Shown: positions 4,000 to 38,027 of the stretch, piece by piece
How the letters are laid out: each line of letters begins with the position of its first letter
Position numbering within the stretch: the stretch's first letter is position 1
Source of the DNA: Patescibacteria group bacterium
GTDB lineage: Bacteria; Patescibacteriota; Microgenomatia; Levybacterales; UBA12049
Assembly: GCA_038062115.1 (NCBI GenBank)
Contig: JBBTXS010000004.1
Location: forward strand, 5,009 to 69,008
Direction: 5' to 3'
DNA: 64,000 nt
The notes under the pieces: model-generated
Database searches by the model: none
The model's input: only the letters and a program-made list of their open reading frames with translations
What the model was told of the DNA's origin: nothing
Translations under genes and position numbers: made by a program

Positions 4000-5981
4000 A
4001 TATTCTACAATCTTTCTTAGAAATTATATTTTTTATCATTGCTATTGTTATCTGTTTTTATCTTCCAGGAAAATTTCTGTTGGTAAAGTTAAGACTTCGC
4101 TTGAATTCCCCAGGAGATTTATTCCCTCCTTTTATTATAGGCATAATGTTGTTTACGTTAATTTCCTATATTTTTTCTTGGTTAAAATTAGAGATTATAA
4201 TTTTACCTTTACTTCTAGTGACTGACATTTTTGTTATTAAGAGTAAGAAATGGTTTCCACACAGCATAGAAAAGCGCCATCTAATTCCTATTTTTATTGT
4301 ATTTATTTTGGCATTTATTTTTAGTCTTAGCATGCTAACGTCTGGTATCTATGGTGATACGATTAAATATGGAAGGGATGATTTATGGCATCTTGCATTA
4401 ATCAATGAACTAAAAGCCAATTTCCCTCCTGATAACCCTGGATTTGCCGGAGTTCCGTTAAGAGGCTACCACTTTTTTTATAATTTTATACTGGCTAAGA
4501 TTAGTAATATTTTTTCCGTTTCTCCTCTTTCATTGTATTTTCACTTCTTTCCATTATTCATAGCTATTTTATGGGGGTTGGGTGTGTACGAGCTTATGTA
4601 TACATGGAGCAAGAAAATATCAATTGCTCTTTGGGCTGTTTTTTTGACAATGTTTGGGGGCAGCTTTGCTTTTATCTTATTCTTGCGAGGTCATGGTGGT
4701 TTAAGTTTGGATAGTGCGTTTGGAATACAACAACCAGCAACTGCGCTTATTAATCCACCCTTTGCAATATCGATTATTATTGTTATTTCTGCACTTTTTA
4801 TAATGCATCAATATATAGAATCCAAAAAGAGTGCTTGGCTTGTTCCTTTGTCTATATTTATTGGTTTAGCAACAATGTTTAAGGTTTATGCTGGTATTAT
4901 TCTTGTTGGTGGCTTTATTTTGTTTAGTGCTATTGAGGTTATTCATAAAAGGAACTACTTAATACTCGTATCGCTATTTGTTTCAGGAATTTTCTTCGTT
5001 GTCACATACGGAATCTTTAGGGATCCGTCATCTACTCTTATTTTTGCGCCTCTTTGGGCACCTCACAGCGTGCTTACAGATAATATGCCATGGTACGGAT
5101 ATGCAGAAAAAATGTATACATACACAAAGCTTTCTGTCATAAAGGGAATAGTGGAGACGGAATTATACGCTTTATATGTATTTTTGTTTGGCAATTTAGG
5201 TACAAGATTAATAGGATTGTTATTATTGCCAGTACTTATTTTAAAAGAACATAAAACTCCTTCCTTTTTTGCTCTTACTGTTTTAATAATGACTTTGATT
5301 TCTATTTTGACACCATTGTTTTTTATTCAATCTGGAAAAGTGTTTGAAATTATACAGATGGCGTGGTATTTTTTGTTTTTTATTTCTTTGTTTGCCGCAT
5401 TTGGATTTCATGCGTTGTTTAATTTTGGCTATAGTAAGATATTAAAAATCGTTTTATTTGCCATAGTTTTAATACTAACATTGCCATCAGCTTATGAGAA
5501 CTACAAAGGTTACTTTGCTTACTTTCGTTCTCAAGGCGCTCAATTATCGGATCCTTACTTCAAAGCAATGCAATTTTTAAGTTCAGAAAGAAACTATAAG
5601 GATACTGTTTTAGAAATTCCCGATAAAAATATCTCTGCAACGAAAAGAGACCTAATGAGTTGGTACGGGTGGTCGTCGCCGGCAATTGTGGCGTTTGGGA
5701 ACAAAAGAGGTTATTTAAATAATGAATATATTGATTTTGCAGGGGTAGATATTGCCCCCAGAATTGACTTTGTCCGCAAAATTATTTTACTTAATAAGAT
5801 GTTCACAAGTAATGCTTTGGAATATACAGACCTTCAAAAAGAAGTAAAGCGGGGACTAAAAGAATATAAAATTTCATTTATTTATAGTCCTTATCCCTTA
5901 TCAGCTCTTGATGCTATAAGCAACGTTGATAAGGTATTTGAGAATCAAGTTGCTACAATATATAAAGTGGATGTTAAATAA
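3996..5981 (+). CDS. Polytopic membrane protein, FPPxNP family (GT-C-like, function unknown)
   Basis: 661 aa with many hydrophobic segments. Loop motif WHLALINELKANFPPDNPGFAGVPLRGYHFFYNF is paralogous to HLSLVRSFSWGDNFPVESPFFPGTPLAYHYYFDLL in ORF 26440-28041. ATGA overlap at 3996-3999. Confidence 0.55.
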   Translation: MNILQSFLEIIFFIIAIVICFYLPGKFLLVKLRLRLNSPGDLFPPFIIGIMLFTLISYIFSWLKLEIIILPLLLVTDIFVIKSKKWFPHSIEKRHLIPIFIVFILAFIFSLSMLTSGIYGDTIKYGRDDLWHLALINELKANFPPDNPGFAGVPLRGYHFFYNFILAKISNIFSVSPLSLYFHFFPLFIAILWGLGVYELMYTWSKKISIALWAVFLTMFGGSFAFILFLRGHGGLSLDSAFGIQQPATALINPPFAISIIIVISALFIMHQYIESKKSAWLVPLSIFIGLATMFKVYAGIILVGGFILFSAIEVIHKRNYLILVSLFVSGIFFVVTYGIFRDPSSTLIFAPLWAPHSVLTDNMPWYGYAEKMYTYTKLSVIKGIVETELYALYVFLFGNLGTRLIGLLLLPVLILKEHKTPSFFALTVLIMTLISILTPLFFIQSGKVFEIIQMAWYFLFFISLFAAFGFHALFNFGYSKILKIVLFAIVLILTLPSAYENYKGYFAYFRSQGAQLSDPYFKAMQFLSSERNYKDTVLEIPDKNISATKRDLMSWYGWSSPAIVAFGNKRGYLNNEYIDFAGVDIAPRIDFVRKIILLNKMFTSNALEYTDLQKEVKRGLKEYKISFIYSPYPLSALDAISNVDKVFENQVATIYKVDVK

Positions 5982-8451
5982 TGCGCATTTTGTTTCTTTT
6001 TAAAAAAATGAATGCCAATATTGCGATAACTGATAATATGGAGACGGTAGAGCCAATCTTAAAAGAAATTGGTTCATATTTGAATGTTACTTCGTGATTT
6101 CCCTTAGGTAAATATATGCTTCTAAACGTATAGTCTGCGCGATAGATTTTGGTTTCTTTATTGTCGACATATGCTTTCCACCCTGGATAATAGTTGTCAG
6201 AAAGAAAAAGCATTTGTGGCATGTTAGTTTTTGTTATTATTTCAATTTTCTGAGGTTCATATTGGGTAATTTTTACTAATGAATCAGGAGAGACTTCTTG
6301 TAAGTCAATCATGTTTTGTGGAAACAAAAATAACTCAGAGGGTTTTTCTTCTAAAACAATATTTGATGAAAGATCAAAATTCGCGTCAAACAGCAAGTCT
6401 GCAATTTTTTGGGGATTATTTTGAATGTGTATTCTGCTTGTTAAAAAAGCTCTGGGAAACGCTTTGGAATATTCAATGCCAGTCCAATTATTATGTTGCC
6501 AAACGGGATGAAAAAGATTTCGAGGAAATTTATTTGCACCACTATTTTTTGGATTATGATCATCAAAGTAAAGTATATATTTTATTCCAAGAAGTGAAAG
6601 TAAACGAATTTTTCTATTATCCTCAAAGGGATTCTCTTTATCTCCTAACTCTGATAGTCTTGCCTCAACTCGAGGTATGTCGTTTGCGATCTTTCCGTTA
6701 TTTTTAACAGCAAAGATAAGCTCTCCGTATCGTCTTGGGAAAACTGGATTTACTCCTTCGGCAGAGTAAATCCGGCCATATGTTGATATGTTTTCTTGCA
6801 TGGGTTGACGCAGGGAGAGAAATCTGTCTAAAGAATTTCTTGATTGTAAAAAAGAGATTACAGGGTTTTTTGGATAGAGAAATTGAGGGTCGCCAATTAC
6901 GATATATTTATTAAGAAAATAAAATTGTCCGAATAGCGTCAGAATAATAATTACGATGAAAGACAGATTGGTTATCTTTTTGGTTCGTAAAAAAATAAAG
7001 AGAAAAGAAAGCATAATAAAGGGCAAGACGAGGTTTTTTAGAAGGACAAGAATATTCATTTTTGTTGGAGAGGATCCATGTCTAATTACATAATTATTCA
7101 AGTCTCTAAAAAATGTAGCATGGCTATAGTTCAATAACAGAAATCCGTAGAGAGCGATCAATAATAGAGTTATGACTAAAACAAAAATAATTAACAGCAT
7201 AAGCCTTAGGTCTTTTTCTCTTTTTTGTTTTATTAGTGTAGATATGCCAAATGCGGAAAGTGTGGCAACTGAAAAAGTTGTTAGAAAAAGAATTCTACTT
7301 GGTAAGAATGTCGGAAGTAAAGGAAGTGGAAGTTGAAAAAACCATCTTGTAAACGGTGAATCGAGCGTTAGAAAAAAAGATAGAAGGAGAGCTCCAATAA
7401 AAAAACGGATAACAGGATTTATTTTTGCTTTAATGCCTGCATATATGGCAAAGACAGATGGAATAAGTCCCGCATAAAGTATAGTTTCTCGATAGAATCC
7501 ACGGCCAAAAAAATTATATGCTCCTGGATTGCCAAAGATATCTGGTACAAAAGCATTAAACAAATGCGTGACGGGAAGAAGGTAGCCTTCAAATAAATAC
7601 CAAACCGACGATGTACTCCTTGGAGATTCTAAAAAAGCTTCTATAGATGGGAGCAATTGTATAGCAGATAGGCAAAGAGAGAAAACATAGATGCCAATAA
7701 TTTTAATTAAATAGGTTGGAGGAAGAGATAGACTTCTAATTCGAAAAATACTATAGAAGAAGGAAAATATGAATATATAAAAAGTTACTTGGAAGAATCC
7801 GGCAAGAAAAGAACATGTAAGGGCAATAATTGCTACAAGATAGTAGAGGTTTTTTTTGGTATTGAGATATCCTTCAATGCCAAAAAGGCAAAGCGGAAGC
7901 CATAAGGCGGCTTGACCGACAACGACATTTTCTTGGCTCCATATAATCATGAATCCAGAAAATCCGAAAGCTATTGCGCCAAGCCAAACAGCAGGTCTTG
8001 CCAAGCGAAAAAGGCTTAAAAAAAGGTACATAAAAAATGTTGCCATAATTGGCTGAATAAATAGAAGAAGTTGCCATGCATAAGTTTGTGGCAGGAAAAA
8101 ATAAAGAATGTTTAGTGGATAAAATATGGCAGACTGAAAATCTGCAAGAAAAGGAGTGCCTGCAAAAACATAAGGATTCCAAAGTGGAATGATTTTTTTT
8201 GCCAGCATCTCGTTTGTAAATGTTCTTTCTGGGTAAAATATTCGGATCTGATCATCTCCTATTGGCTTATGGGGTATACCGGCTTCCCAGCCTGGAAATT
8301 TCTCTGTTTTCCAAGGAGAATAAAATTGAGCAAGGAAATTTGATGGAAAAAGAATTTTTCCGTTGAAAACGACCTGTCTATATATGATTAGTATGCCAAT
8401 AGCTATAGAGAGCAATATAAAAAAATCTGTATAATGCCAATTGCGCTTCAT
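5974..8451 (-). CDS. YfhO-family membrane glycosyltransferase-like protein
   Basis: 825 aa. N-terminal region (IFYPERTF...WNPYVFAGTPFLADFQSAIFYPLN) and C-terminal beta-rich tail (YYPGWKAYVDNKETKIYRADYTFRSIYLPKGNHEVTFKYEP) resemble YfhO proteins. It is one of the few minus-strand genes in the array and is convergent with 3996-5981, overlapping it by 8 nt. Confidence 0.7.
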   Translation of the reverse strand: MKRNWHYTDFFILLSIAIGILIIYRQVVFNGKILFPSNFLAQFYSPWKTEKFPGWEAGIPHKPIGDDQIRIFYPERTFTNEMLAKKIIPLWNPYVFAGTPFLADFQSAIFYPLNILYFFLPQTYAWQLLLFIQPIMATFFMYLFLSLFRLARPAVWLGAIAFGFSGFMIIWSQENVVVGQAALWLPLCLFGIEGYLNTKKNLYYLVAIIALTCSFLAGFFQVTFYIFIFSFFYSIFRIRSLSLPPTYLIKIIGIYVFSLCLSAIQLLPSIEAFLESPRSTSSVWYLFEGYLLPVTHLFNAFVPDIFGNPGAYNFFGRGFYRETILYAGLIPSVFAIYAGIKAKINPVIRFFIGALLLSFFLTLDSPFTRWFFQLPLPLLPTFLPSRILFLTTFSVATLSAFGISTLIKQKREKDLRLMLLIIFVLVITLLLIALYGFLLLNYSHATFFRDLNNYVIRHGSSPTKMNILVLLKNLVLPFIMLSFLFIFLRTKKITNLSFIVIIILTLFGQFYFLNKYIVIGDPQFLYPKNPVISFLQSRNSLDRFLSLRQPMQENISTYGRIYSAEGVNPVFPRRYGELIFAVKNNGKIANDIPRVEARLSELGDKENPFEDNRKIRLLSLLGIKYILYFDDHNPKNSGANKFPRNLFHPVWQHNNWTGIEYSKAFPRAFLTSRIHIQNNPQKIADLLFDANFDLSSNIVLEEKPSELFLFPQNMIDLQEVSPDSLVKITQYEPQKIEIITKTNMPQMLFLSDNYYPGWKAYVDNKETKIYRADYTFRSIYLPKGNHEVTFKYEPISFKIGSTVSILSVIAILAFIFLKRNKMRII

Positions 8452-8528
8452 AGCTTAAGATTATTCTAGAAAAGAATCTTCGATAAAAGCTGCATAACTT
8501 ATTTTAGTATTATATACTACGAGTAGTC

Positions 8529-10229
8529 ATGAACGTAACGAAACCAAAAATTATACTGGTAGTAATTATTATAATAGCTGCTTTTCTGCGTTTTTATCAA
8601 TTAGGTAATAATCCTTCTTCTCTTACTTGGGATGAGGCGGCATGGGGATATAATGCTTATTCTTTAGGGATTGATGGAAAAGATGAGTTTGGTAGATTTT
8701 TGCCTCTTGATTATTTAGAGTCCTTTGGCGATTTTAAGCCCCCCTTGTATGCATATTTAGATATTATTCCTATCAAAATTTTTGGTTTAAATGAGTTTGC
8801 TACTAGATTTCCTTCGGCATTCTTTGGAGTATTGACAGTTTTGGTAACTTATTTTTTGGTAAGGAGAATATTTTCTTTTTCTCGAAATTCACCCCCGAGG
8901 AGTCGCTTTGCAACATCTCGGGGGTGGCCGAATGGGCTCCCCCGAGGTGAAAGTGTTGCGTTATTGTCTGCTTTTTTACTGGTTATTTCTCCTTGGCATA
9001 TTAATTTATCTCGAGCTGCGTTTGAGGCTAATGTTGCATCTTTCTTTATTGTTGCTGGAGTGTGGTTATTTCTAGCCGCAATTCAAAATAAGAAATGGCT
9101 TCTTTTGCTTTCTGTTTCTTCTTTCGTTCTTTCTATATACACATTTAATACGGCAAGAATAGTATCTCCAATTCTTTTTATACTTTTATCGCTAATCTTT
9201 TGGAAAGCCTTATGGAGAATCAAATACCAAGTCGTGGGAGCAACAATTGTTGGAATAGTTTTAATCCTTCCAATTGCGAGATTTTTGGTTTCGCCTCAAG
9301 CAAGTCTTAGGTTTAAAGAAGTTAATATATTTTCAGATATCGAAGTTATTGAAAGGACAAATCAAGAAATTGAAAATGACAAAAATATTATGTGGTCTCG
9401 CATACTTCATAATCGTAGGTTTGCATACGCAGTTGAATATATTAAGCACTACCTTGATAACGTAAGCCCTTCTTTTTTATTCCTCAAAGGAGATGGTAAT
9501 CCAAAATTTTCTACCCAGGATGTAGGACAAATGTATTTATGGGAGTTGCCATTTTTTATAGGTGGGATTTTATTGCTTTTTAGAAGAAGAGAAGGTAATT
9601 GGTGGATTGTTCCGTTATGGTTACTGATTGGCATCGTTCCGGCGGCAACTGCACGCGAGACTCCGCATGCTTTACGTATTGAGACAACATTGCCAACTTT
9701 TCAAATTATCGTTGCTTATGGCATCTATCAAGCAGTATCAAGTATTAAGTATTATGTATTAAGTAAAAACAAAAGATACGTTATACTTAGCTCTTTTATC
9801 TTACTACTTTTTGTGAATTTTCTATATTACATACATGGATATTATGCTCACTACCCTCGTGAGTATTCAGGAGAATGGCAGTATGGCTATAAAGAATCAA
9901 TAGAATATGTCAAGATGGTTCAGGATAAATACGATCAGATACGAATCACTTCAGCAATGGGTAGACCATATGTCTATTACGCATTTTTTACTAAGACTTT
10001 TCCTGAATCCTTTAGAAAAACTGCGATTGTTAAACGAGACGCATTTGGATTTGTTACGGTTTCAGGATTTTTAAAATATCGTTTTGCTGACAATCTAAAC
10101 TTCATTAAGGAAAAGACAAAAAAGGCACTGTACATAGATATTCCAGGAAGAGTTCACCCAAAAGGAGATATATTAAAAAGATTTTATTTGTTAAATGGGG
10201 CAGAGGTGCTTGTTGCTTATAGACTCTAA
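8529..10229 (+). CDS. GT39/PMT_2 (ArnT-like) lipid-carrier-dependent glycosyltransferase, paralog 1
   Basis: 566 aa. SLTWDEAAWGYNAYSLGIDGKDEFGRFLPL...FGDFKPPLYAY is the typical first-loop DE motif region of GT39/ArnT-like enzymes. Also ISPWHINLSRAAFEAN. Confidence 0.75.
   Translation: MNVTKPKIILVVIIIIAAFLRFYQLGNNPSSLTWDEAAWGYNAYSLGIDGKDEFGRFLPLDYLESFGDFKPPLYAYLDIIPIKIFGLNEFATRFPSAFFGVLTVLVTYFLVRRIFSFSRNSPPRSRFATSRGWPNGLPRGESVALLSAFLLVISPWHINLSRAAFEANVASFFIVAGVWLFLAAIQNKKWLLLLSVSSFVLSIYTFNTARIVSPILFILLSLIFWKALWRIKYQVVGATIVGIVLILPIARFLVSPQASLRFKEVNIFSDIEVIERTNQEIENDKNIMWSRILHNRRFAYAVEYIKHYLDNVSPSFLFLKGDGNPKFSTQDVGQMYLWELPFFIGGILLLFRRREGNWWIVPLWLLIGIVPAATARETPHALRIETTLPTFQIIVAYGIYQAVSSIKYYVLSKNKRYVILSSFILLLFVNFLYYIHGYYAHYPREYSGEWQYGYKESIEYVKMVQDKYDQIRITSAMGRPYVYYAFFTKTFPESFRKTAIVKRDAFGFVTVSGFLKYRFADNLNFIKEKTKKALYIDIPGRVHPKGDILKRFYLLNGAEVLVAYRL
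8884..8956 (+). repeat. GC-rich palindromic insertion, in-frame inside the GT39 CDS
   Basis: cacccccgag (8890-8899) pairs perfectly with ctcgggggtg (8917-8926). A third arm, ctcccccgagg (8937-8947), repeats the first. Strongly GC-rich against an AT-rich background. Translated as SRNSPPRSRFATSRGWPNGLPRGESV in a loop where GT39 homologs, as I recall them, run almost directly from ...LV.RIF to .ALLSAFLL. Confidence 0.8.
9733..9765 (+). repeat. Heptanucleotide repeat block (AAGTATT units) inside CDS
   Basis: cagtatc aagtatt aagtatt atgtatt aagta, translated SSIKYYVLS. Reverse complement of the AATACTT units at 18557 and 29936. Confidence 0.9.
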
Positions 10230-10230
10230 A

Positions 10231-12024
10231 ATGAAAAGAAAAATTGTGTATCCTGTTTTGTTCGTAATTATTGTTATAGCTTCGGTATTAAGACTGTGGA
10301 AGTTAGGAGATGTGCCAATTTCCCCTAACTGGGACGAAGTTGCTCTTGGGTACAACGCATATTCTATTATGCAGACGGGCAGAGATGAATATGGCGAATT
10401 TTTGCCAATTATTTTACGATCATTCGATGACTATAAGCCTGCCTTATATGCTTATTTTGCAATACCATTTATTAAGCTATTTGGCTTAACTGTTTTTGCT
10501 GTTAGGTTGCCCTCTGCTATTTTTGGGATATTAACAGTTCTAGCTACTTATTTTTTGGTTAAAGAAATATTTGGGATAAACCACAAATTCAAAATCACAA
10601 ATTCCAAACAAATTCAAAATTCTCCGCCAAAGGCGGATCAACCTCTGGCTAAAAATGATCAAAATTCAAAATGTGCATTGGAAAATGGAAAATGGAAAAT
10701 GGAAAATACGATTCCTTTACTTTCTACATTCTTACTTGCTATTTTTCCATGGCATGTTCAGTTTTCAAGGATTGCCTTTGAATCCAATGTTGGACTTGCT
10801 TTTAATATATTTGCTGTGTTGTTTTTTCTGTGGGGATTACGACGTCCATGGCTTCTATTGCTATCTGCGCTAACTATGGGTATAAATTTATATGTTTATC
10901 AAAGCGAGAAAGTTTTTACTCCGTTACTGCTTCTTACTTTAATTATAATTTTTAGAAAATCACTTTTTTTGCTCCCAAAAAAATATATAGTAATGGCTGG
11001 AGCCTTAGGTCTTATTATCTCTTTGCCAATAATTCATTATACATTTACTAACAGAGAGGCATTATCTAGAGCTCAAGATGTAAGCATACTTGCCAATACA
11101 ACGCCACTTCTTGAAGAAAATGTCCAAAGACTTGTTAGAGATAAAGAAAAACAGGACTATCTTGGTCTTATTTTAGACAACAGACGAGTCACGTATCTAA
11201 AAAACATTGCTTCAGGATATTTGTCTCATTTTGATCTCAACTGGCTGTTTATAAAAGGAGATATAGCACGTCATCATGCTCCAAACATGGGGATTTTGTA
11301 TCTCTGGGAATTACCATTTTTAATGATTGGAATATATAAGCTATTGTTCGGTTCGTCAGTTGACGGATTTACTAAAAAAATAAAAGCGTTTATATTCATC
11401 TGGTTTTTAATAGCTCCCATTCCTGCTTCTGTAACCAGTGATGTGCCTCATGCTGTACGTACTTTAAACTTTCTGCCGACTTTTCAGATATTTATATCAA
11501 TAGGGTTAATAACAGCTATAGGGTTGGTATCAAGTATTAAGTATCAAGTATTAAGTATAAGGATAAAATATATATCCTTTGTTTTTTTCTTTTTCTTTTT
11601 TGCCTTTAATTTCTCATATTATGTTAATCAATACTTTGTTCAGCAGAATTATTTTCATGCTCAATACTGGCAATATGGATATAAGGAAATTGTTGAATAT
11701 CTTATGCCTATTCACAATAAATATAATAAAATAATAGTTTCCAATACGCAACCTTTAGATCAGTCCTATATATTTTTCCTATTCTACTCAAAATATGATC
11801 CAGTAAAGTATTTAGCAACAGGCGGAACTAGATCAGGTATTCAAGAGGAAGACGGAAATAAATTTTTAAATTTTGAATTTAGGAAATTCAATTATTATGA
11901 AGAAAAAGGGCATAATATTCTTTTGGTTGGAAGCGGGTCAGACTTTAAAGAAATCTTTAAAACTATAAAAAGAGTTGATTATCCAAATGGGGAAGTAGCT
12001 ATTAGAGTTGTTGAGAAAGATTGA
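10231..12024 (+). CDS. GT39/PMT_2 (ArnT-like) lipid-carrier-dependent glycosyltransferase, paralog 2
   Basis: The track ORF starts at 10195, inside the upstream gene. The ATG at 10231 directly follows the upstream TAA (10227-10229). ISPNWDEVALGYNAYSIMQTGRDEYGEFLPI...FDDYKPALYAY and IFPWHVQFSRIAFESN are colinear with 8529-10229. Confidence 0.75.
   Translation: MKRKIVYPVLFVIIVIASVLRLWKLGDVPISPNWDEVALGYNAYSIMQTGRDEYGEFLPIILRSFDDYKPALYAYFAIPFIKLFGLTVFAVRLPSAIFGILTVLATYFLVKEIFGINHKFKITNSKQIQNSPPKADQPLAKNDQNSKCALENGKWKMENTIPLLSTFLLAIFPWHVQFSRIAFESNVGLAFNIFAVLFFLWGLRRPWLLLLSALTMGINLYVYQSEKVFTPLLLLTLIIIFRKSLFLLPKKYIVMAGALGLIISLPIIHYTFTNREALSRAQDVSILANTTPLLEENVQRLVRDKEKQDYLGLILDNRRVTYLKNIASGYLSHFDLNWLFIKGDIARHHAPNMGILYLWELPFLMIGIYKLLFGSSVDGFTKKIKAFIFIWFLIAPIPASVTSDVPHAVRTLNFLPTFQIFISIGLITAIGLVSSIKYQVLSIRIKYISFVFFFFFFAFNFSYYVNQYFVQQNYFHAQYWQYGYKEIVEYLMPIHNKYNKIIVSNTQPLDQSYIFFLFYSKYDPVKYLATGGTRSGIQEEDGNKFLNFEFRKFNYYEEKGHNILLVGSGSDFKEIFKTIKRVDYPNGEVAIRVVEKD
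10578..10709 (+). repeat. Composite low-complexity insertion in CDS: degenerate heptamer arms, a small GC hairpin, and (TGGAAAA)x4
   Basis: cacaaat tcaaaat cacaaat tccaaac aaattca..., then tccgcc-aaa-ggcgga (10623-10637), then tggaaaa x4 (10679-10706). Translated NHKFKITNSKQIQNSPPKADQPLAKNDQNSKCALENGKWKMENT. Same loop position as the insert at 8884-8956 in the paralog. Confidence 0.85.
11527..11559 (+). repeat. Heptanucleotide repeat block (AAGTATT/AAGTATC units) inside CDS
   Basis: gtatc aagtatt aagtatc aagtatt aagtata, translated SSIKYQVLSIR. 29 of 31 nt identical to 9735-9765. Confidence 0.9.
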
Positions 12025-14824: not shown

Positions 14825-14852
14825 ATCCAGCACCGAATCGGTGCTGGATAAA
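14822..14852. repeat. 23-nt palindromic element flanked by TAAA direct repeats (intergenic copy)
   Basis: TAAA tccagcacc-gaatc-ggtgctgga TAAA. With the flanking a/t the perfect stem is 10 bp (14825-14834 pairs with 14840-14849). The left TAAA contains the stop codon of 13289-14824. No U-tract follows. Confidence 0.85.
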
Positions 14853-14867
14853 GCGCAATCCAAATCT

Positions 14868-16400
14868 ATGAAAAAATTGTTTATTTTTTTTGGGTTATTG
14901 ATTATATTAGCAATTGGTTCTTGGCTTAGGTTAAGCGGAATTATAAGTAATTCTTTTGCATTTACTTACGATGTAGGGCGAGATATGCTTGCTGTTGAAA
15001 ATATAGTGGTTAATCATAAAATTACTCTTATTGGGCAAACAACAGGAGTAGAGGGTATTTTCTATGGGCCTTGGTGGTACTTTATATTAAGTATTCCATT
15101 TTTTATCTTTTCCGGTAACCCGCAGGGAATTGCATTTTTTATGGCGTTTATTGGAATTATCACTATTTTCCTGAGTTACATTGTTGGGGAAAAGATAGGT
15201 GGAGTTTTTTTAGGAATAATTTTTTCTGCTTTTATTAGCATTTCTTCTATAATGGTTTTGTCTTCTTCCCAAATATGGAACCCAAATCCAATACCCTTTT
15301 TTGTCTTACTTGTCTTTCTGATGCTTTATATGCTCTCTTTTGACAGTAAACCCCGCACCCACGGGGTGCGGGGTAAACCTAAAACTTCTAAAGCAAAATA
15401 TCTTTTCCTACTTGGTTTGCTCTTGGGCATTACCATAGATATGGAAATAGTATTTGGAATTCTGCTTTTTTTGGGTACTTGCATATCTTTAATTCTTATT
15501 TTTAGAAAAAGATTGAGAATAAAAGAAGTACCTTTTTTTGCCTTAGGATTATTATTTATTTTTTCTCCACGGATTATTTTTGAGGTTCGGCATGATTTTT
15601 TGATGACCAAGACATTTATTAACGCTTTTAGCAATGGATTCATGTCGCCTAAGCACTTTTCTATTTTTGACGCACTTTTTAGCAAACTAGGCTCTTTATT
15701 TAACGTATGGAATGCTACATTAGCAGGACAAAACAGCACAGTTGGTTTTATTTTGATAGCCTTCGTTTCTTTATGCTTGCTATTTTTCTATAAAAAGATA
15801 GAGGATACACAGAAACAATTTATGCAGACTATTTTTATTGTAATTGTAATTTTTTTAATAGGCTTTATTTTTTTAAATCAGGCTATTTGGCCTCATTATC
15901 TTGTTGGTATTCCAGTTTTTTATATTCTTCTTGTAAGCTTAATCATTAATACAACAAAGATTGTCTTAAAAAAATCTTGGGTTATTTTCTTTATATTGCT
16001 TGTTTTATTTTGGATTAATCTAAACCCTATGCAGGTTTTAGACAATATTAGGAAGCCTATATGGGAGGGAAATGCCGCAGTATATCGTAATCAAGTTGCT
16101 GTTATTGATTATGTTTTTAATGATGCAAAAGGCAAAGATTTTAAATACATTGTTTATACCCCAGCCGTACATGATTATACTTACAGGTACTTGTTTTCTT
16201 GGTATGGAAAGAAAAAATATAGCTACATCCCTGGCCAAAAAAACACTGGATTATTTTATGTAATACTGGAGCCTGACTATGATTTGCCGTTTCGATTAAA
16301 AGATTGGTTAAACGATAGAGAGGACGATGGAACAATACAAAAAGAAAAGATAGTAAAAGGAGGGATAACAGTTCAGACAAGGATATTGAACATTGAATAA
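14868..16400 (+). CDS. Polytopic GT-C-like membrane protein, FGFDQ family (paralog 4)
   Basis: The track start GTG 14841 lies inside the hairpin, so the ATG at 14868 (MKKLFIFFGLL) is preferred. FTYDVGRDMLAVENIVVNHKITLIGQ...GPWWYFIL. C-terminal ...YLFSWYGKKKYSYIP. Confidence 0.65.
   Translation: MKKLFIFFGLLIILAIGSWLRLSGIISNSFAFTYDVGRDMLAVENIVVNHKITLIGQTTGVEGIFYGPWWYFILSIPFFIFSGNPQGIAFFMAFIGIITIFLSYIVGEKIGGVFLGIIFSAFISISSIMVLSSSQIWNPNPIPFFVLLVFLMLYMLSFDSKPRTHGVRGKPKTSKAKYLFLLGLLLGITIDMEIVFGILLFLGTCISLILIFRKRLRIKEVPFFALGLLFIFSPRIIFEVRHDFLMTKTFINAFSNGFMSPKHFSIFDALFSKLGSLFNVWNATLAGQNSTVGFILIAFVSLCLLFFYKKIEDTQKQFMQTIFIVIVIFLIGFIFLNQAIWPHYLVGIPVFYILLVSLIINTTKIVLKKSWVIFFILLVLFWINLNPMQVLDNIRKPIWEGNAAVYRNQVAVIDYVFNDAKGKDFKYIVYTPAVHDYTYRYLFSWYGKKKYSYIPGQKNTGLFYVILEPDYDLPFRLKDWLNDREDDGTIQKEKIVKGGITVQTRILNIE
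15347..15377 (+). repeat. 23-nt GC-rich palindromic element flanked by TAAA direct repeats, in-frame inside CDS
   Basis: TAAA ccccgcaccc-acg-gggtgcgggg TAAA (arms 15351-15360 and 15364-15373). 23 + 4 = 27 nt = 9 codons, translated within DSKPRTHGVRGKPKT. Paralogs have a much shorter loop here (TKEGKTKYLF, LQGSGKFFLL). Confidence 0.85.
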
Positions 16401-24653: not shown

Positions 24654-24797
24654 TGTCATTTCGAGCTTGACGGGTTACCGTACGGTAACCCGTCTTGTCG
24701 AGAAATCTTTATCACCGTAGTTGCGAGAGATCCCTCGGCTTCGGGAGGCACTGTCTGGTGTATCCCTTCGCTCGGGATGACAGGTTATAAGGCGAGC
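24654..24797 (+). mobile_element. MITE-family variant carrying a nested 24-26-nt perfect palindrome
   Basis: The 5' end tgtcatttcgagcttg matches MITE A/B. Then comes gacgggttaccg-ta-cggtaacccgtc (24669-24694) bracketed by cttg...cttg, then tcgagaaatc as in A/B. The 3' end gctcgggatgacaggttataaggcgagc resembles the 3' end of the CDS-embedded copy at 30306-30327. Confidence 0.7.
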
Positions 24798-29289: not shown

Positions 29290-31032
29290 ATGAAAGGTAG
29301 ATTATATTCGTTCTTAGCAGTTGTCACAATTCTATTTTTTGCGTTTTTAGCAGGTTTTGCTCTTTTGCATCCTGGGCTGCCGCCTACTCATGATGGCGAG
29401 TATCATGTTATTAGGTTTTATGAATTTGACAAGACATTAAGAGATGATGATTGGTACCCTCGTTGGGCTCCAGACTTAAATAACGGTTTTGGGATTCCAC
29501 TTTTTAACTATGTCTATCCCTTGCCAAACTATTTTTCCTTCATATTGCATCTATTTGGAGTAAGTTTTATTGATGCTTTTAAGCTTAATATGTTTTTTGC
29601 CACAATAATTGGTTCAGCATTTTTTTATTTATGGGCAAGAGAGTTTTGGGGAACAATGGGCGGCGTTGTTTCTTCGGTTTTCTATACCTTTTCTCCATAT
29701 CATTTCGTAGAAATTTATATTAGGGGTTCTGTTGGAGAGGTGTGGGCATTAGCTTTTTTCCCTGCGTTTTTGTGGGCATTTACAAGATTTGTTAAAAATA
29801 AACAAAAAATATTTTTGGCATTTTCTTCTTTATTTTTGGCATTAATTATATTTTCTCACAATATTCTAGCCTTAATGTTTTTCTTTTTCGCTTTATCTTA
29901 CATTGTTTTTTTAATTGCTCAAGTAACGAATAAGAAATACTTAATACTTAATACTTTACACTTAATACTTATTAGTCTTGGCTTATCTTCTATATTTTGG
30001 TTACCTGCAATACTGGAGAGTAACCTTGTAAAAGGACTTGAGATTTTTGATTTAACCGCTCATTTTCCAGATTTATATCAATTGTTAATTCCTTCTTGGG
30101 GATCGGGATTTTCAGGCGAAAGCTTAAACAATCAACTTTCATTTCAAATAGGAATTGCGAATTTATTGGCAGTATTATTAAGTATATTGTTGGTTACTTT
30201 TAAAATATGTAATTTTCGCATTTTTCGTCATTCTGGGGAGCGTAGCGACTCCAGAATCAAAAACAGATTCTGGACAAGACGGGTACCAGACGGTAACCCG
30301 TCAAGCCAGAATGACGGTAAGGCGAGCGCCGTTATTTTCTTTCTGGTTTTCTTTTTCTTTACTTTCTTTTTGATGCTCAAAGCATCTCAACCCATCTGGA
30401 ATAATGCTCCACTAATGAATTACTTTCAATTCCCATGGCGTTTTTTAAGCCTTGAAATTATATTTTCCTCATTTTTGGCTGGAAGCATTATATATTTTTG
30501 TAAATCTAAGATTCTCGCAATTTTCTTGATACTTCTTACTTTTTCTTTAGGGATAGGATACACAAAACCAGCTTATTATCATTACAGAGATGATAATTAT
30601 TATCTCACCCGGTCAAATTTTATCGATGGAACAAATAGCCCTGGTAATGTTTTTAATACAATCTTTTTTAAAACAGATCTAAAAAAACAAAAAGAAAAAT
30701 TATTTTTTTTAGAGGGTAGTGGAAAAATTAATCAAGAGATAGTTAAAAGCACGCGGTATGCTTTTGATATAAAAGCAGAGAAGGATTCAGAAATAAGAGT
30801 AAATACAGCTTATTTTCCGGGATGGGTTATTAAATTAGATGGCAAAAGAATAAAACCTAAAATAGCGAGTAGTGGACTATTTTCATTTAGTATTCCAGAA
30901 GGCCAACACCTTGTTGAGATCAAGTTTACGGATACTCCTGCAAGGATTATAGGAGCATTTGGCTTTATTTTATCATCGTTTATTCTTATTGCTTTGTCTA
31001 TTAGGGTTGTGTTTGCTACAATTAGAAGATGA
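29290..31032 (+). CDS. Polytopic membrane protein, THDG family (PTPS-related-domain / YfhO-like GT-C candidate), paralog 2
   Basis: 580 aa. HPGLPPTHDGEYHVIRF...PRWAPDLNNGFGIPLFNYVYPLPNY, QFPWRFLSL and C-terminal YFPGWVIKLDGKRIKP...QHLVEIKF are colinear with 17905-19578. Confidence 0.55.
   Translation: MKGRLYSFLAVVTILFFAFLAGFALLHPGLPPTHDGEYHVIRFYEFDKTLRDDDWYPRWAPDLNNGFGIPLFNYVYPLPNYFSFILHLFGVSFIDAFKLNMFFATIIGSAFFYLWAREFWGTMGGVVSSVFYTFSPYHFVEIYIRGSVGEVWALAFFPAFLWAFTRFVKNKQKIFLAFSSLFLALIIFSHNILALMFFFFALSYIVFLIAQVTNKKYLILNTLHLILISLGLSSIFWLPAILESNLVKGLEIFDLTAHFPDLYQLLIPSWGSGFSGESLNNQLSFQIGIANLLAVLLSILLVTFKICNFRIFRHSGERSDSRIKNRFWTRRVPDGNPSSQNDGKASAVIFFLVFFFFTFFLMLKASQPIWNNAPLMNYFQFPWRFLSLEIIFSSFLAGSIIYFCKSKILAIFLILLTFSLGIGYTKPAYYHYRDDNYYLTRSNFIDGTNSPGNVFNTIFFKTDLKKQKEKLFFLEGSGKINQEIVKSTRYAFDIKAEKDSEIRVNTAYFPGWVIKLDGKRIKPKIASSGLFSFSIPEGQHLVEIKFTDTPARIIGAFGFILSSFILIALSIRVVFATIRR
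29936..29970 (+). repeat. Heptanucleotide repeat block (AATACTT)x3 + TACACTT + AATACTT inside CDS
   Basis: Read directly; translated KYLILNTLHLIL. Same architecture and codon phase as 18557-18591. Confidence 0.9.
30226..30327 (+). mobile_element. MITE-family element embedded in-frame in the THDG-family CDS (about 102 nt, 34 codons)
   Basis: Perfect 11-bp IR cgtcattctgg (30226-30236) / ccagaatgacg (30306-30316). Inner palindrome acgggtaccagacggtaacccgt is bracketed by caag...caag. Tail gtaaggcgagc is shared with 24654-24797. Translated FRHSGERSDSRIKNRFWTRRVPDGNPSSQNDGKAS. The paralog 17905-19578 has no counterpart (YKNKNKLW). Confidence 0.8.
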
Positions 31033-37914: not shown

Positions 37915-38027
37915 ATGACTGGGTCACAATTGTCATTTCGAGCTTGCCGAGAAATCTCCTTCAACGAGATTCCTCGACTCGCTCACGCTCGCTCGGAATG
38001 ACAAATGGGTATTTATGACCCAGCCAT
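37915..38027 (+). mobile_element. MITE copy B (about 113 bp) with a 9-bp target-site duplication ACTAATATT
   Basis: Direct repeats actaatatt at 37906-37914 (containing the flippase stop TAA 37908-37910) and 38028-38036. Termini are atgactgggtcacaa and the reverse complement of atggctgggtcataa. Same internal structure as copy A. Confidence 0.85.

Follow-up and report, generated by a model that had tools for sequence, protein, structure and literature searches.

A GC-rich three-armed palindromic element as the probable source of an in-frame loop insertion in a GT39 glycosyltransferase gene of a Microgenomates bacterium

Bacteria of the candidate phyla radiation have tiny genomes and odd gene insertions. 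In the stretch of 64,000 nucleotides analysed here (the window, 64 kb), a GT39 glycosyltransferase gene contains a short, GC-rich, in-frame palindromic segment, which raises the question of whether this segment belongs to the protein that it now encodes or to a family of DNA elements that entered the gene.

The palindrome described in the initial annotation is present in the sequence: CACCCCCGAG at 8890-8899 and its complement CTCGGGGGTG at 8917-8926 form a perfect 10-bp stem, and CTCCCCCGAGG at 8937-8947 repeats the first arm. The additional pairing that had been proposed is found between GCAACA (8910-8915) and TGTTGC (8954-8959), which in the RNA fold join loop X to the 3′ flank. The segment is an insert, as had been claimed, with boundaries that had to be revised from 8884-8956 to 8888-8951 (64 bp) based on family comparison (Table 1). 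Arm 2 is able to pair with arm 1 or arm 3, and the element therefore contains two alternative hairpins. The host open reading frame (ORF) runs through it and reads ...RIFSFSRNSPPRSRFATSRGWPNGLPRGESVALLSAF..., including the stretch SPPRSRFATSRGWPNGLPRGES, so that an Arg/Pro/Gly/Ser-rich loop of 22 residues is encoded as originally described. The striking GC richness noted earlier is borne out by the insert codons (62% GC vs 34% in the rest of the host gene), by a 60-nt sliding window (60-62% at the element vs 25-40% around it) and by the Pro codons, which are CCC or CCG in 4/4 cases in the insert vs 5/23 elsewhere in the gene.

With at most one mismatch, the arm 10-mer has three matches in the 64-kb window, all within the element, while shuffled controls yielded a mean of 0.48 and reached three in 2 of 100 cases. 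The element is the strongest of four GC-rich perfect hairpins (stem of at least 9 bp) in the window, and shuffles yielded none. All four of these hairpin inserts are in frame and lie within envelope-glycan enzymes. Fold z-scores of the window element are -3.2 (RNA, + strand), -3.7 (RNA, - strand) and -3.1 (DNA), those over six family copies range from -3.1 to -3.9, and the covariance model R1 scores the window copy at 71 bits on the + strand and 61 bits on the - strand. The identity of the element with a known structured RNA was rejected, since an Rfam scan of 8000-11500 with E up to 10 returned only two chance-level matches, both outside it. No tRNA or tmRNA genes were found.

Table 1. Features of the element and of the two GT39 genes in the window, and locations of related copies.
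Feature	Position or contig	Strand	Basis or remark
Three-armed palindromic element, 64 bp, TTCA...TGAA, encoding residues ~120-141 NSPPRSRFATSRGWPNGLPRGE	8888..8951	+	10-copy family alignment
Arm 1, CACCCCCGAGG	8890..8900	+	Invariant in 10 full copies, though the scan pattern demanded the arm
Loop X, AGTCGCTTTGCAACAT (N' type), reverse complement of the canonical second loop	8901..8916	+	Compared with L004, L067, L001
Arm 2, CTCGGGGGTG	8917..8926	+	Pairs with either arm 3 or, over 10 bp in this copy, arm 1
Loop Y, (TG)GCCGAATGGGCT (M' type), reverse complement of the canonical first loop	8927..8938	+	
Arm 3, CCCCCGAGGTG, direct repeat of arm 1	8939..8949	+	
3′ flank, GTTGCGTTATTGTC, codons V-A-L-L-S, accompanies the element in GT39 genes	8955..8968	+	Sequence comparison
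Host gene, GT39/GT-C membrane glycosyltransferase, paralogue 1, 566 aa	8529..10229	+	ORF and Pfam
GT39 paralogue 2, 37% identical to paralogue 1, long insert in homologous loop	10231..12024	+	
Different 30-bp GC-rich insert of paralogue 2, CCGCCAAAGGCGGATCAACCTCTGGCTAAA, peptide PPKADQPLAK	10624..10653	+	
GT39 TM3-TM4 loop, forward copies	Window, L001, L003, L004		
GT39 TM3-TM4 loop, reverse copies	L046, L067		
Other loop of neighbouring GT39 gene	L046 791-849		
PurS-PurL gene copy	L024		
Transketolase copy	L037		
GatB copy	L066		17 extra residues vs T. maritima GatB 3al0_B
Intergenic spacer copy	L015		

The host protein is of the GT39/PMT type, matching PF02366 at 32.1 bits (cut-off 22.7) and PF13231 at 28.1 bits (cut-off 26.1) in Pfam, and the PMT_2 match is interrupted exactly at residue 116. 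Its AF2 model (pTM 0.85) matches ArnT (5ezm/5f15), STT3, AglB and PglB in Foldseek with E-values of 1e-7 to 6e-6. Based on the PMT and PMT_2 matches above the curated cut-off and on the predicted GT-C fold, the host gene is a member of GT39/GT-C. Residues 117-138 of the model form a coil between two transmembrane helices, with pLDDT <50 at residues 120-135 and the remainder of the GT-C fold confident; the model thus shows the 22 encoded residues as a disordered loop that joins the third transmembrane helix to the fourth (TM3 and TM4). As to its side of the membrane, the order of the GT-C fold suggests an extracytoplasmic position, and the Arg/Lys-rich native loop suggests a cytoplasmic one. 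P0001, a protein encoded on a 375-kb contig of an NCBI metagenome-assembled genome, is 100% identical to the host protein, and the same sequence was found on four contigs from three sources (NCBI, Logan and ENA), which indicates that the element is not an assembly artefact.

Across 120 orthologues the most common loop length is 8 residues (68/120), and the closest relative (P0004) has an empty site with the loop WNSKSKKL, which shows the segment to be an insertion relative to the ancestral loop of 8 residues. Any form of the element is found in only seven of the orthologues. A peptide resembling SPPRS.F.HLGGVA..PRGET is encoded in three other orthologues. Length variation in the host protein is confined to the TM3-TM4 loop and residues 409-417. 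The earlier suggestion of a permissive or targeted site agrees with the unrelated insertions, each 12 residues or longer, found in this loop in 38 of 120 orthologues. The loop is a hot spot in which indels concentrate, and it also gathers slippage-type low-complexity expansions. Paralogue 2 was likewise said to have a different insert, and this was acquired separately: the orthologous genes of the close relatives L070 and L073 lack exactly the 30 bp of CCGCCAAAGGCGGATCAACCTCTGGCTAAA, which form a hairpin, and align exactly around the gap. The 30-bp sequence occurs once in the window and is surrounded by an expanded A-rich low-complexity loop. A decay series of the three-armed element is present at the GT39 site, with two-arm copies in P0107 and P0081 and a solo arm, TTCCACCCCCGAGGTGAA, in P0017 (the L071 allele), which may have arisen through deletion between arms 1 and 3. 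The source metagenome JGI 3300021357 contains empty, solo-arm and reverse alleles; SRR22388045 and SRR22387996 are further source metagenomes.

The search for the unit elsewhere, as proposed earlier, was positive: other Microgenomates carry it in unrelated genes. Its exact three-arm pattern was identified in four species-representative genomes of the Microgenomates group and in further metagenome contigs, and the family consensus is TTCA-CCCCCGAGG-loop-CCTCGGGGG-loop-CCCCCGAGG-TGAA, 62-64 bp in length. Mean column identity of the 10 full copies is 85%; because the exact patterns used in the scans prescribe the arms, part of the arm conservation among these copies reflects the way in which they were collected. 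The same sequence of about 64 bp is present at non-homologous sites in other genomes. Most copies (11/12) are intragenic, and all 11 of these keep the host frame and are stop-free; the GatB insert coincides with a gap when the protein is aligned to 3al0_B. Five of the six reading frames are in use (SPPRS.., HPRGVHSATSGV.., PRGSRSATPPRW.., LGGAALQHPRGG.. and TSGEP..), and the unused forward frame contains a stop. With five frames and both orientations, the family has no conserved peptide and no single preferred frame.

Diverged relatives carry covarying arms (CACCTCCGAGG/CCTCGGAGG, CACCCCGGGGG/CCCCCGGGGTG and CACCTCGAAGG/CCTTCGAGGTG), with double changes in four of 11 stem pairs and 98.3% of cells paired; 0 of 500 shuffles attained the observed score, and slid controls dropped to ~50%. 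This pattern shows a stem that is maintained at the nucleic-acid level, by compensatory changes in the diverged relatives. Exact three-arm copies occur once per genome in whole-collection scans and once in the 384-kb L001 contig, and an unfiltered covariance-model search of the 64-kb window likewise recovered one copy. Diverged two-arm relatives are locally commoner, with three in the PurS-PurL gene of L024. Scans of the genome collection gave 59 matches, mostly from high-GC taxa, and the four matches inspected from outside the candidate phyla radiation (L017, L021, L023 and L027) proved unrelated, differing in loops and termini. The two-arm pattern had no match in viral contigs. Searching the concatenated five-frame translations against a set of 5.8 billion proteins returned 12 word-sharing candidates, none scored.

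The window, L001 and the solo-arm L071 have identical 14-nt flanks 3′ of the element, and L003 and L004 match them at 12 of 14 positions. A different sequence is present in L070 and L073, which are close relatives, and in P0064 and P0059, two orthologues without the element. Sharing of this flank implies that common descent or gene conversion links the GT39 copies and that not all of them arose independently, so that the claim of independent acquisitions applies to the insert of paralogue 2 and not to every same-family copy in GT39. The common flank suggests gene conversion, and its distribution shows spread that was evidently by homology and not by transposition for at least part of the copies. 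Recombination over long tracts was rejected based on sliding-window identity, in which only ~14 nt on the 3′ side of the element switch affinity and the upstream side does not. Compared with the canonical order A-M-A'-N-A, the window copy reads A-N'-A'-M'-A, with loops reversed and arm cores forward. A single inversion between the inverted repeats of the element was rejected as the source of this order, as no one event works from a canonical or a reversed start.

We consider it likely that 8888-8951 is a copy of a selfish or neutral palindromic insertion element, carried as a passenger in a permissive loop, and that the family probably consists of small, non-coding, GC-rich palindromic repeats of Microgenomates. 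The element would have landed in, or been converted into, the short TM3-TM4 loop of GT39, where the ribosome would read through it to produce a tolerated, disordered loop of 22 residues. The insert peptide would have no function at the protein level, and the element would persist by being harmless at permissive sites. Its spread would be rare and hairpin-dependent. One candidate route is transposition of the hairpin as a single strand, by an enzyme whose gene lies elsewhere; in the other, foreign DNA would be taken up and short-patch gene conversion would follow, as is suggested by the 14-nt flank that travels with the element among GT39 genes. After insertion, the element would rearrange through its own repeats: loops would flip, deletions from one arm to another would leave remnants with two arms or a single one, and such events may likewise have produced the unusual order of the window copy. 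As for target-site duplications, no direct repeat is common to the flanks of 10 copies, whose boundaries are uncertain by a few bases, and no transposase-like ORFs were seen among the window ORF translations read by eye. A further point against a mobile element is that mobile repeats usually reach far more copies than this one, and 62% GC with ~85% identity across deep lineages of AT-rich genomes could also mean a selected function.

Several of these features could also be accounted for by a palindrome made locally in GT39, through template switching or slippage at a seed such as CACCCCCGAGGTG, and spread by homologous recombination between GT39 alleles and paralogues alone, in which case it would not be mobile. 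The low copy number, the flank common to the GT39 copies and the slippage-type expansions in the loop are consistent with such an origin; the solo-arm allele could represent the seed instead of a remnant, and the loop flips and rearranged window copy could reflect active local rearrangement. We nevertheless regard a local origin as improbable, since the ~64-bp sequence, with both loops and the TYCA/TGAA termini, is found in GatB, PurL, transketolase and a spacer, none of which has homology to GT39. The variety of configurations in one GT39 loop (forward, reverse, single-loop-flipped and chimeric, with the same flank) raises a further idea, that of a bistable self-rearranging cassette which, together with the other hairpin inserts of the window, would represent a pervasive and undescribed class of protein-remodelling elements in bacteria of the candidate phyla radiation. 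We think this unlikely. Such a class could spread via DNA uptake and gene conversion, and, if rearrangement happens in place and repeatedly, it would mean peptide switching in an envelope glycosyltransferase loop, that is, hairpin-driven phase or antigenic variation.

A cis-acting RNA or DNA structure under selection, in which the two alternative hairpins serve in ribosome pausing, mRNA stabilisation or protein binding, would explain the stable hairpin on both strands, the stem preserved by compensatory changes and a sequence so well conserved between lineages of AT-biased hosts. Most orthologues, the closest included, lack the element, it decays to remnants and has no Rfam match, and arm-to-arm conversion can generate covariation of a DNA palindrome without RNA function; this explanation is accordingly very unlikely. 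The ribosome pausing at a membrane-helix boundary that had been put forward earlier is unsupported, because the element is also found within genes for cytosolic enzymes and in a spacer between genes, and in either orientation, a distribution that misfits a role specific to membrane insertion. Could the segment be simply an odd protein loop, an Arg/Pro/Gly-rich peptide selected in the glycosyltransferase with an incidental palindrome? The open frame and the similar peptide in three other orthologues would fit, but this notion is close to refuted by the presence of any form in only 7/120 orthologues, the five frames used for the same DNA elsewhere, the disorder in the AF2 model, and arms that are identical at synonymous positions and built of GC-rich codons rare in the host. 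Translational bypass or excision, as for the byp GC clusters of Magnusiomyces mitochondria, in which the insert is transcribed and then skipped or removed, has in its favour that bypass elements were found in just such surroundings, as GC-rich hairpin inserts of AT-rich genes (PMC8811140). It appears extremely unlikely here: all 11 intragenic copies preserve the frame and are stop-free and the stop-bearing forward frame is unused, a filter that would be absent if the element were skipped, and matching take-off and landing codons were not seen. Elements of the byp type disrupt the frame or bring in stops and have matching take-off and landing codons on either side, and the family differs from them on both counts.

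The passenger element therefore remains our preferred reading, and the family shows that at least some lineage-specific loops come from horizontally shared GC-rich palindromic DNA and not from innovation at the protein level. For annotation, such loops should not be taken for functional motifs, and for analyses of protein families and structures it is relevant that the inserts interrupt domain models. The family also bears on mobile DNA, gene conversion and hairpin-driven rearrangement in the genomes of uncultivated organisms. With four in-frame GC-rich hairpin inserts in a single window, the phenomenon may be common.

By analogy, the element resembles Rickettsia palindromic elements (RPEs) and the GC clusters of yeast mitochondria, and it appears to depart from both in having about one intact copy per genome, a 14-nt flank in GT39 genes and reversed loops in the window copy. 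Two other classes resemble it in part. Like MITEs, it is small and non-coding and lies at unrelated sites. Its inverted termini (TTCACC/GGTGAA) are conserved among copies, only 6 bp long and part of the arms, and the element is shorter than most MITEs, has a very low copy number and lacks a recognisable target-site duplication. REPs are RAYT-associated, extragenic, high-copy repeats with a terminal GTAG or CGTC tag, whereas the consensus of this family has neither tag, and the family is low-copy with 11/12 copies intragenic. The two-arm unit CACCCCCGAGG-14 nt-CCTCGGGGGTG is nevertheless a GC-rich imperfect palindrome similar to REP/BIME units, and its 36 nt agree with the 20-40 bp given for REPs (PMC3733652).

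RPEs are interpreted as selfish DNA incorporated into proteins; they measure ~150 bp, fall into ten families, number 44 copies in R. conorii and encode a conserved peptide (review PMC10969869). Similar to RPEs, the family described here is a hairpin-forming repeat inserted in frame into unrelated housekeeping genes of a small-genome bacterium with ORFs left intact, at structurally tolerant positions of the host protein (the AF2 coil; the GatB alignment gap). Set against RPEs by description, it differs in its length of 62-64 bp with three arms and about one intact copy per genome (~100-150 bp and tens per genome in RPEs), in its use of five frames and both orientations without a conserved peptide, and in being GC-rich in an AT-rich host of a different phylum. 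In yeast mitochondrial DNA, GC clusters provide an in-frame insertion polymorphism of var1, their loops change fastest, and they undergo merging and shuffling and have been linked with both gene conversion and cluster-to-cluster deletions, with terminal AG/TAG repeats interpreted as target-site duplications (PMC8811140). Those clusters are organellar, abundant per genome and mostly intergenic, whereas the present family is bacterial and its junctions lack AG/TAG-type repeats. The two are alike in being GC-rich palindromes in an AT-rich genome (62% vs 34% here) with in-frame presence or absence among orthologues and in having loops as their fastest-changing parts, and the loop flips, arm-to-arm deletion and travelling flank of the Microgenomates family add to this likeness.

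The palindromic element lies, with the frame kept, inside ORF 8529..10229, which matches PMT/PMT_2 (GT39) above curated cut-offs and whose PMT_2 match ends exactly at the insert. [quoted passage not shown] Four contigs of three independent origins carry the identical protein (P0001), so the element is not an assembly artefact. Among 120 aligned orthologues with 61–100% identity, the loop has eight residues in 68 (consensus RIF-WNSKSKEL-YALLSA) and 10 or fewer in 82, and P0004, the sister of P0001 in a neighbour-joining tree calculated with the loop left out, has an empty site (WNSKSKKL). This comparison shows that the element is an insertion into a hypervariable loop. The permissive or targeted site proposed by the initial annotation is borne out by loop inserts of at least 12 residues, many of them unrelated, in 38 of the 120 orthologues, and by the concentration of indels of this protein family in two loops (the insert loop and residues 409–417). 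In an AlphaFold2 model (mean pLDDT 80.7, pTM 0.85), which resembles the GT-C enzymes ArnT, STT3, AglB, and PglB, residues 117–138 form a coil between helices 89–116 and 139–152 with pLDDT below 50 at 120–135, showing a loop that is predicted to be disordered and permissive. Many of the remaining inserts expand the native AATTCAAAATCAAAA into A-rich low-complexity sequence (e.g., in P0002) and look like slippage products. The closely related orthologue P0003 carries another GC-rich insert (…TPSGKRRDSGVVAYAPPQNDEW) in this loop, which is unrelated to the three-arm family and therefore a third kind of element there.

All three arms are present (see table), and GCAACA (8910–8915) can pair with TGTTGC a little 3′, confirming the palindromic insert described from the sequence. 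Local GC reaches 60–62% in a window of 30–35%, and the insert uses codons unusual for its host (Pro only as CCC or CCG, no AGA). With up to one mismatch, the arm 10-mer is found at three places in the 64-kb window, all within the element (shuffle mean 0.48), and a hairpin scan identified four perfect GC-rich hairpins in the window, the element among them, and none in shuffles. The element folds better than shuffles both as RNA of either strand and as DNA (z −3.1 to −3.7); arm 2 can form 11 bp with either arm 1 or arm 3, and pairing of arms 2 and 3 is preferred in predicted DNA folds.

Features of the element, its relatives, and other GC-rich palindromes
Feature	Locus	Coordinates	Sequence or remark
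Arm 1	Window	8890–8900	CACCCCCGAG(G)
Arm 2	Window	8917–8926	CTCGGGGGTG, complement of arm 1
Arm 3	Window	8937–8949	(CT)CCCCCGAGG(TG)
Paralogue 2 insert, 30 bp	Window	10624–10653	CCGCCAAAGGCGGATCAACCTCTGGCTAAA
Perfect 11-bp GC hairpin, in-frame	Window, ORF 14841..16400	15350–15374	ACCCCGCACCC-ACG-GGGTGCGGGGT; peptide SKPRTHGVRGKP
GC-rich composite palindromic stretch, ~110 bp, in-frame	Window, ORF 29290..31032	~30230–30340	Peptide FRHSGERSDSRIKNRFWTRRVPDGNPSSQNDGKASAV; perfect 9-bp inverted repeat TCCAGAATC/GATTCTGGA
GC-rich hairpins or imperfect palindromes at or between gene ends	Window	14826–14848, 24671–24692, 24706–24797, 37939–37997	TCCAGCACCGAATCGGTGCTGGA, CGGGTTACCGTACGGTAACCCG, and two longer GC islands
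GT39 loop, forward	Window, L001, L003, L004		
Same GT39 loop, reverse	L046 (Chisholmbacteria), L067		Two different frames
Different loop of neighbouring GT39 paralogue	L046	791–849	Two-arm variant
PurS-PurL	L024		
Two-arm relatives in the same PurS-PurL gene	L024	1432–1481, 1625–1693, 3821–3894	CACCTCCGAGGTG...CACCTCGGAGGTG
Transketolase linker	L037		
GatB	L066		17 extra residues relative to 3al0_B
Intergenic spacer	L015		

The window represents a single large envelope-glycan cluster (1–64000) encoding at least nine GT-C/PMT_2/YfhO-type membrane proteins and many GT2/GT4 enzymes, epimerases, and sugar-nucleotide enzymes, with no phage gene or transposase evident. Within this cluster, the 11-bp hairpin, in another membrane protein, is a second type of GC-rich palindromic insert; the composite stretch lies in a large membrane protein, and the palindromes at or between gene ends may represent terminators or additional repeat families.

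The orthologues P0026, P0041, and P0072 (62–65% identical to P0001) have almost the same DNA segment as the element at the corresponding loop position. Scanning 185,579 species-representative genomes for the exact three-arm pattern returned 59 stretches, mostly in high-GC taxa. Four matches outside the CPR were examined and are unrelated to the element; four others (Curtissbacteria, Chisholmbacteria, Microgenomates, and a Patescibacteria MAG) have its loops and termini. A stricter scan of metagenome contigs added two new stretches among the five that it returned. Across the ten full copies, mean column identity is 85%, the length is 62–64 bp in nine cases (61 bp in L015), and the consensus reads TTCA-CCCCCGAGG-AGTCCATTCGGCCA-CCTCGGGGG-TGTTGC..AGCGACT-CCCCCGAGG-TGAA. 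The unit, for which the initial annotation advised a genome-wide search, thus recurs in PurS-PurL, transketolase, GatB, and a spacer of other genomes, which shows that the family is dispersed. The PurS-PurL gene of L024 contains four palindromic inserts (one three-arm and three two-arm), at least two of the two-arm relatives being in-frame (peptide HLRGEG..ATKLHLGGV). In addition to its element, the GatB gene of L066 (ORF 5061–6515) has a low-complexity insert, NTTNTTNATNTTN, and additional sequence, FDFLRLRSGQVAQGK, at a point where it aligns poorly and with gaps to Thermotoga GatB; both may represent further insert types.

Family copies use five of six reading frames, and the unused forward frame is closed by a TGA from GGTGAA, often with a second TGA, which shows that selection filters for open frames and preserves no peptide. 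A covariance model derived from the ten full copies and run on the compared loci found diverged relatives with arms changed on both sides: CACCTCCGAGG/CCTCGGAGG in P0107 and three copies within the L024 PurS-PurL gene, CACCCCGGGGG/CCCCCGGGGTG in L046, and CACCTCGAAGG/CCTTCGAGGTG in L067. In an 11-sequence alignment, double changes affect 4 of 11 stem pairs and 98.3% of cells are paired, dropping to ~50% in slid controls; none of 500 shuffles reached the observed covariation score. These results show that the stem is conserved at the nucleic-acid level. Because covariation in a DNA palindrome can result from conversion of one arm by another as well as from selection, it points to a hairpin-dependent process and not necessarily to an RNA function. 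Reduced or rearranged forms at the GT39 site include two-arm hairpins (P0107 and P0081), a single flipped loop (L003), and a solo arm, TTCCACCCCCGAGGTGAA (P0017), as would be expected if arms 1 and 3, which are direct repeats, had undergone a deletion between them. The window copy alone combines loops of the reverse type with 5-nt arm cores of the forward type, scoring 71 bits on the plus and 61 bits on the minus strand (other copies ~90 and ~45). Derivation by one inversion was tried and does not yield this arrangement.

The initial annotation had read the different inserts of the two paralogues as independent acquisitions. The paralogue 2 insert, precisely the 30 bp that its close orthologues lack and unique in the window, is indeed a separate acquisition. 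In its loop (10578–10709), it is surrounded by an expanded A-rich low-complexity tract ending in four tandem GGAAAAT heptamers (ENGKWKMEN), where close orthologues have GGCAATTAGAAATT; this tract suggests slippage. The forward GT39 copies, however, share a flank: the 14 nt directly 3′ of the element, GTTGCGTTATTGTC (8955–8968), do not differ between the window, L001, and the solo-arm allele, and match at 12 of 14 positions in L003 and L004. This region reads differently in L070 and L073, close relatives of the window, and in the element-free P0064 and P0059 despite the same amino acids; upstream of the element, no matching shared-flank signal was identified among GT39 copies. Either descent or short-patch gene conversion therefore relates these copies, and because of the tree they probably reflect homologous exchange between lineages instead of repeated de novo insertion. 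The copies outside GT39 do not have this flank and must be separate events. The earlier interpretation is thus supported with the caveat of gene conversion.

The element is probably a selfish or neutral passenger, translated as part of a loop that tolerates it. It probably spreads rarely and by a hairpin-dependent route, for which the candidates are single-strand transposition with an enzyme whose gene lies elsewhere and gene conversion after uptake of DNA, and would afterwards be rearranged or deleted through its own repeats. A simple mobile repeat is disfavoured by the presence of about one intact copy per genome, by the lack of a recognisable target-site duplication at the element, and by the lack of a transposase among the window ORFs, whose translations were read by eye. 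A further point against it is that a GC-rich sequence stays so well conserved in AT-rich genomes, a pattern behind which a function could be hidden.

Full-text literature searches returned, within the texts searched, no description of such elements in CPR/Patescibacteria. The element lacks the tag and extragenic location of REPs and the target-site duplication of MITEs and, unlike bypass elements, is always in-frame. Its behaviour matches that of Rickettsia palindromic elements (RPEs; PMC10969869), although it does not share their size, copy number, or conserved peptide. Even closer in flavour are the yeast mitochondrial GC clusters, which show in-frame insertions in var1, loop-biased change, merging and shuffling, and gene conversion (PMC8811140).
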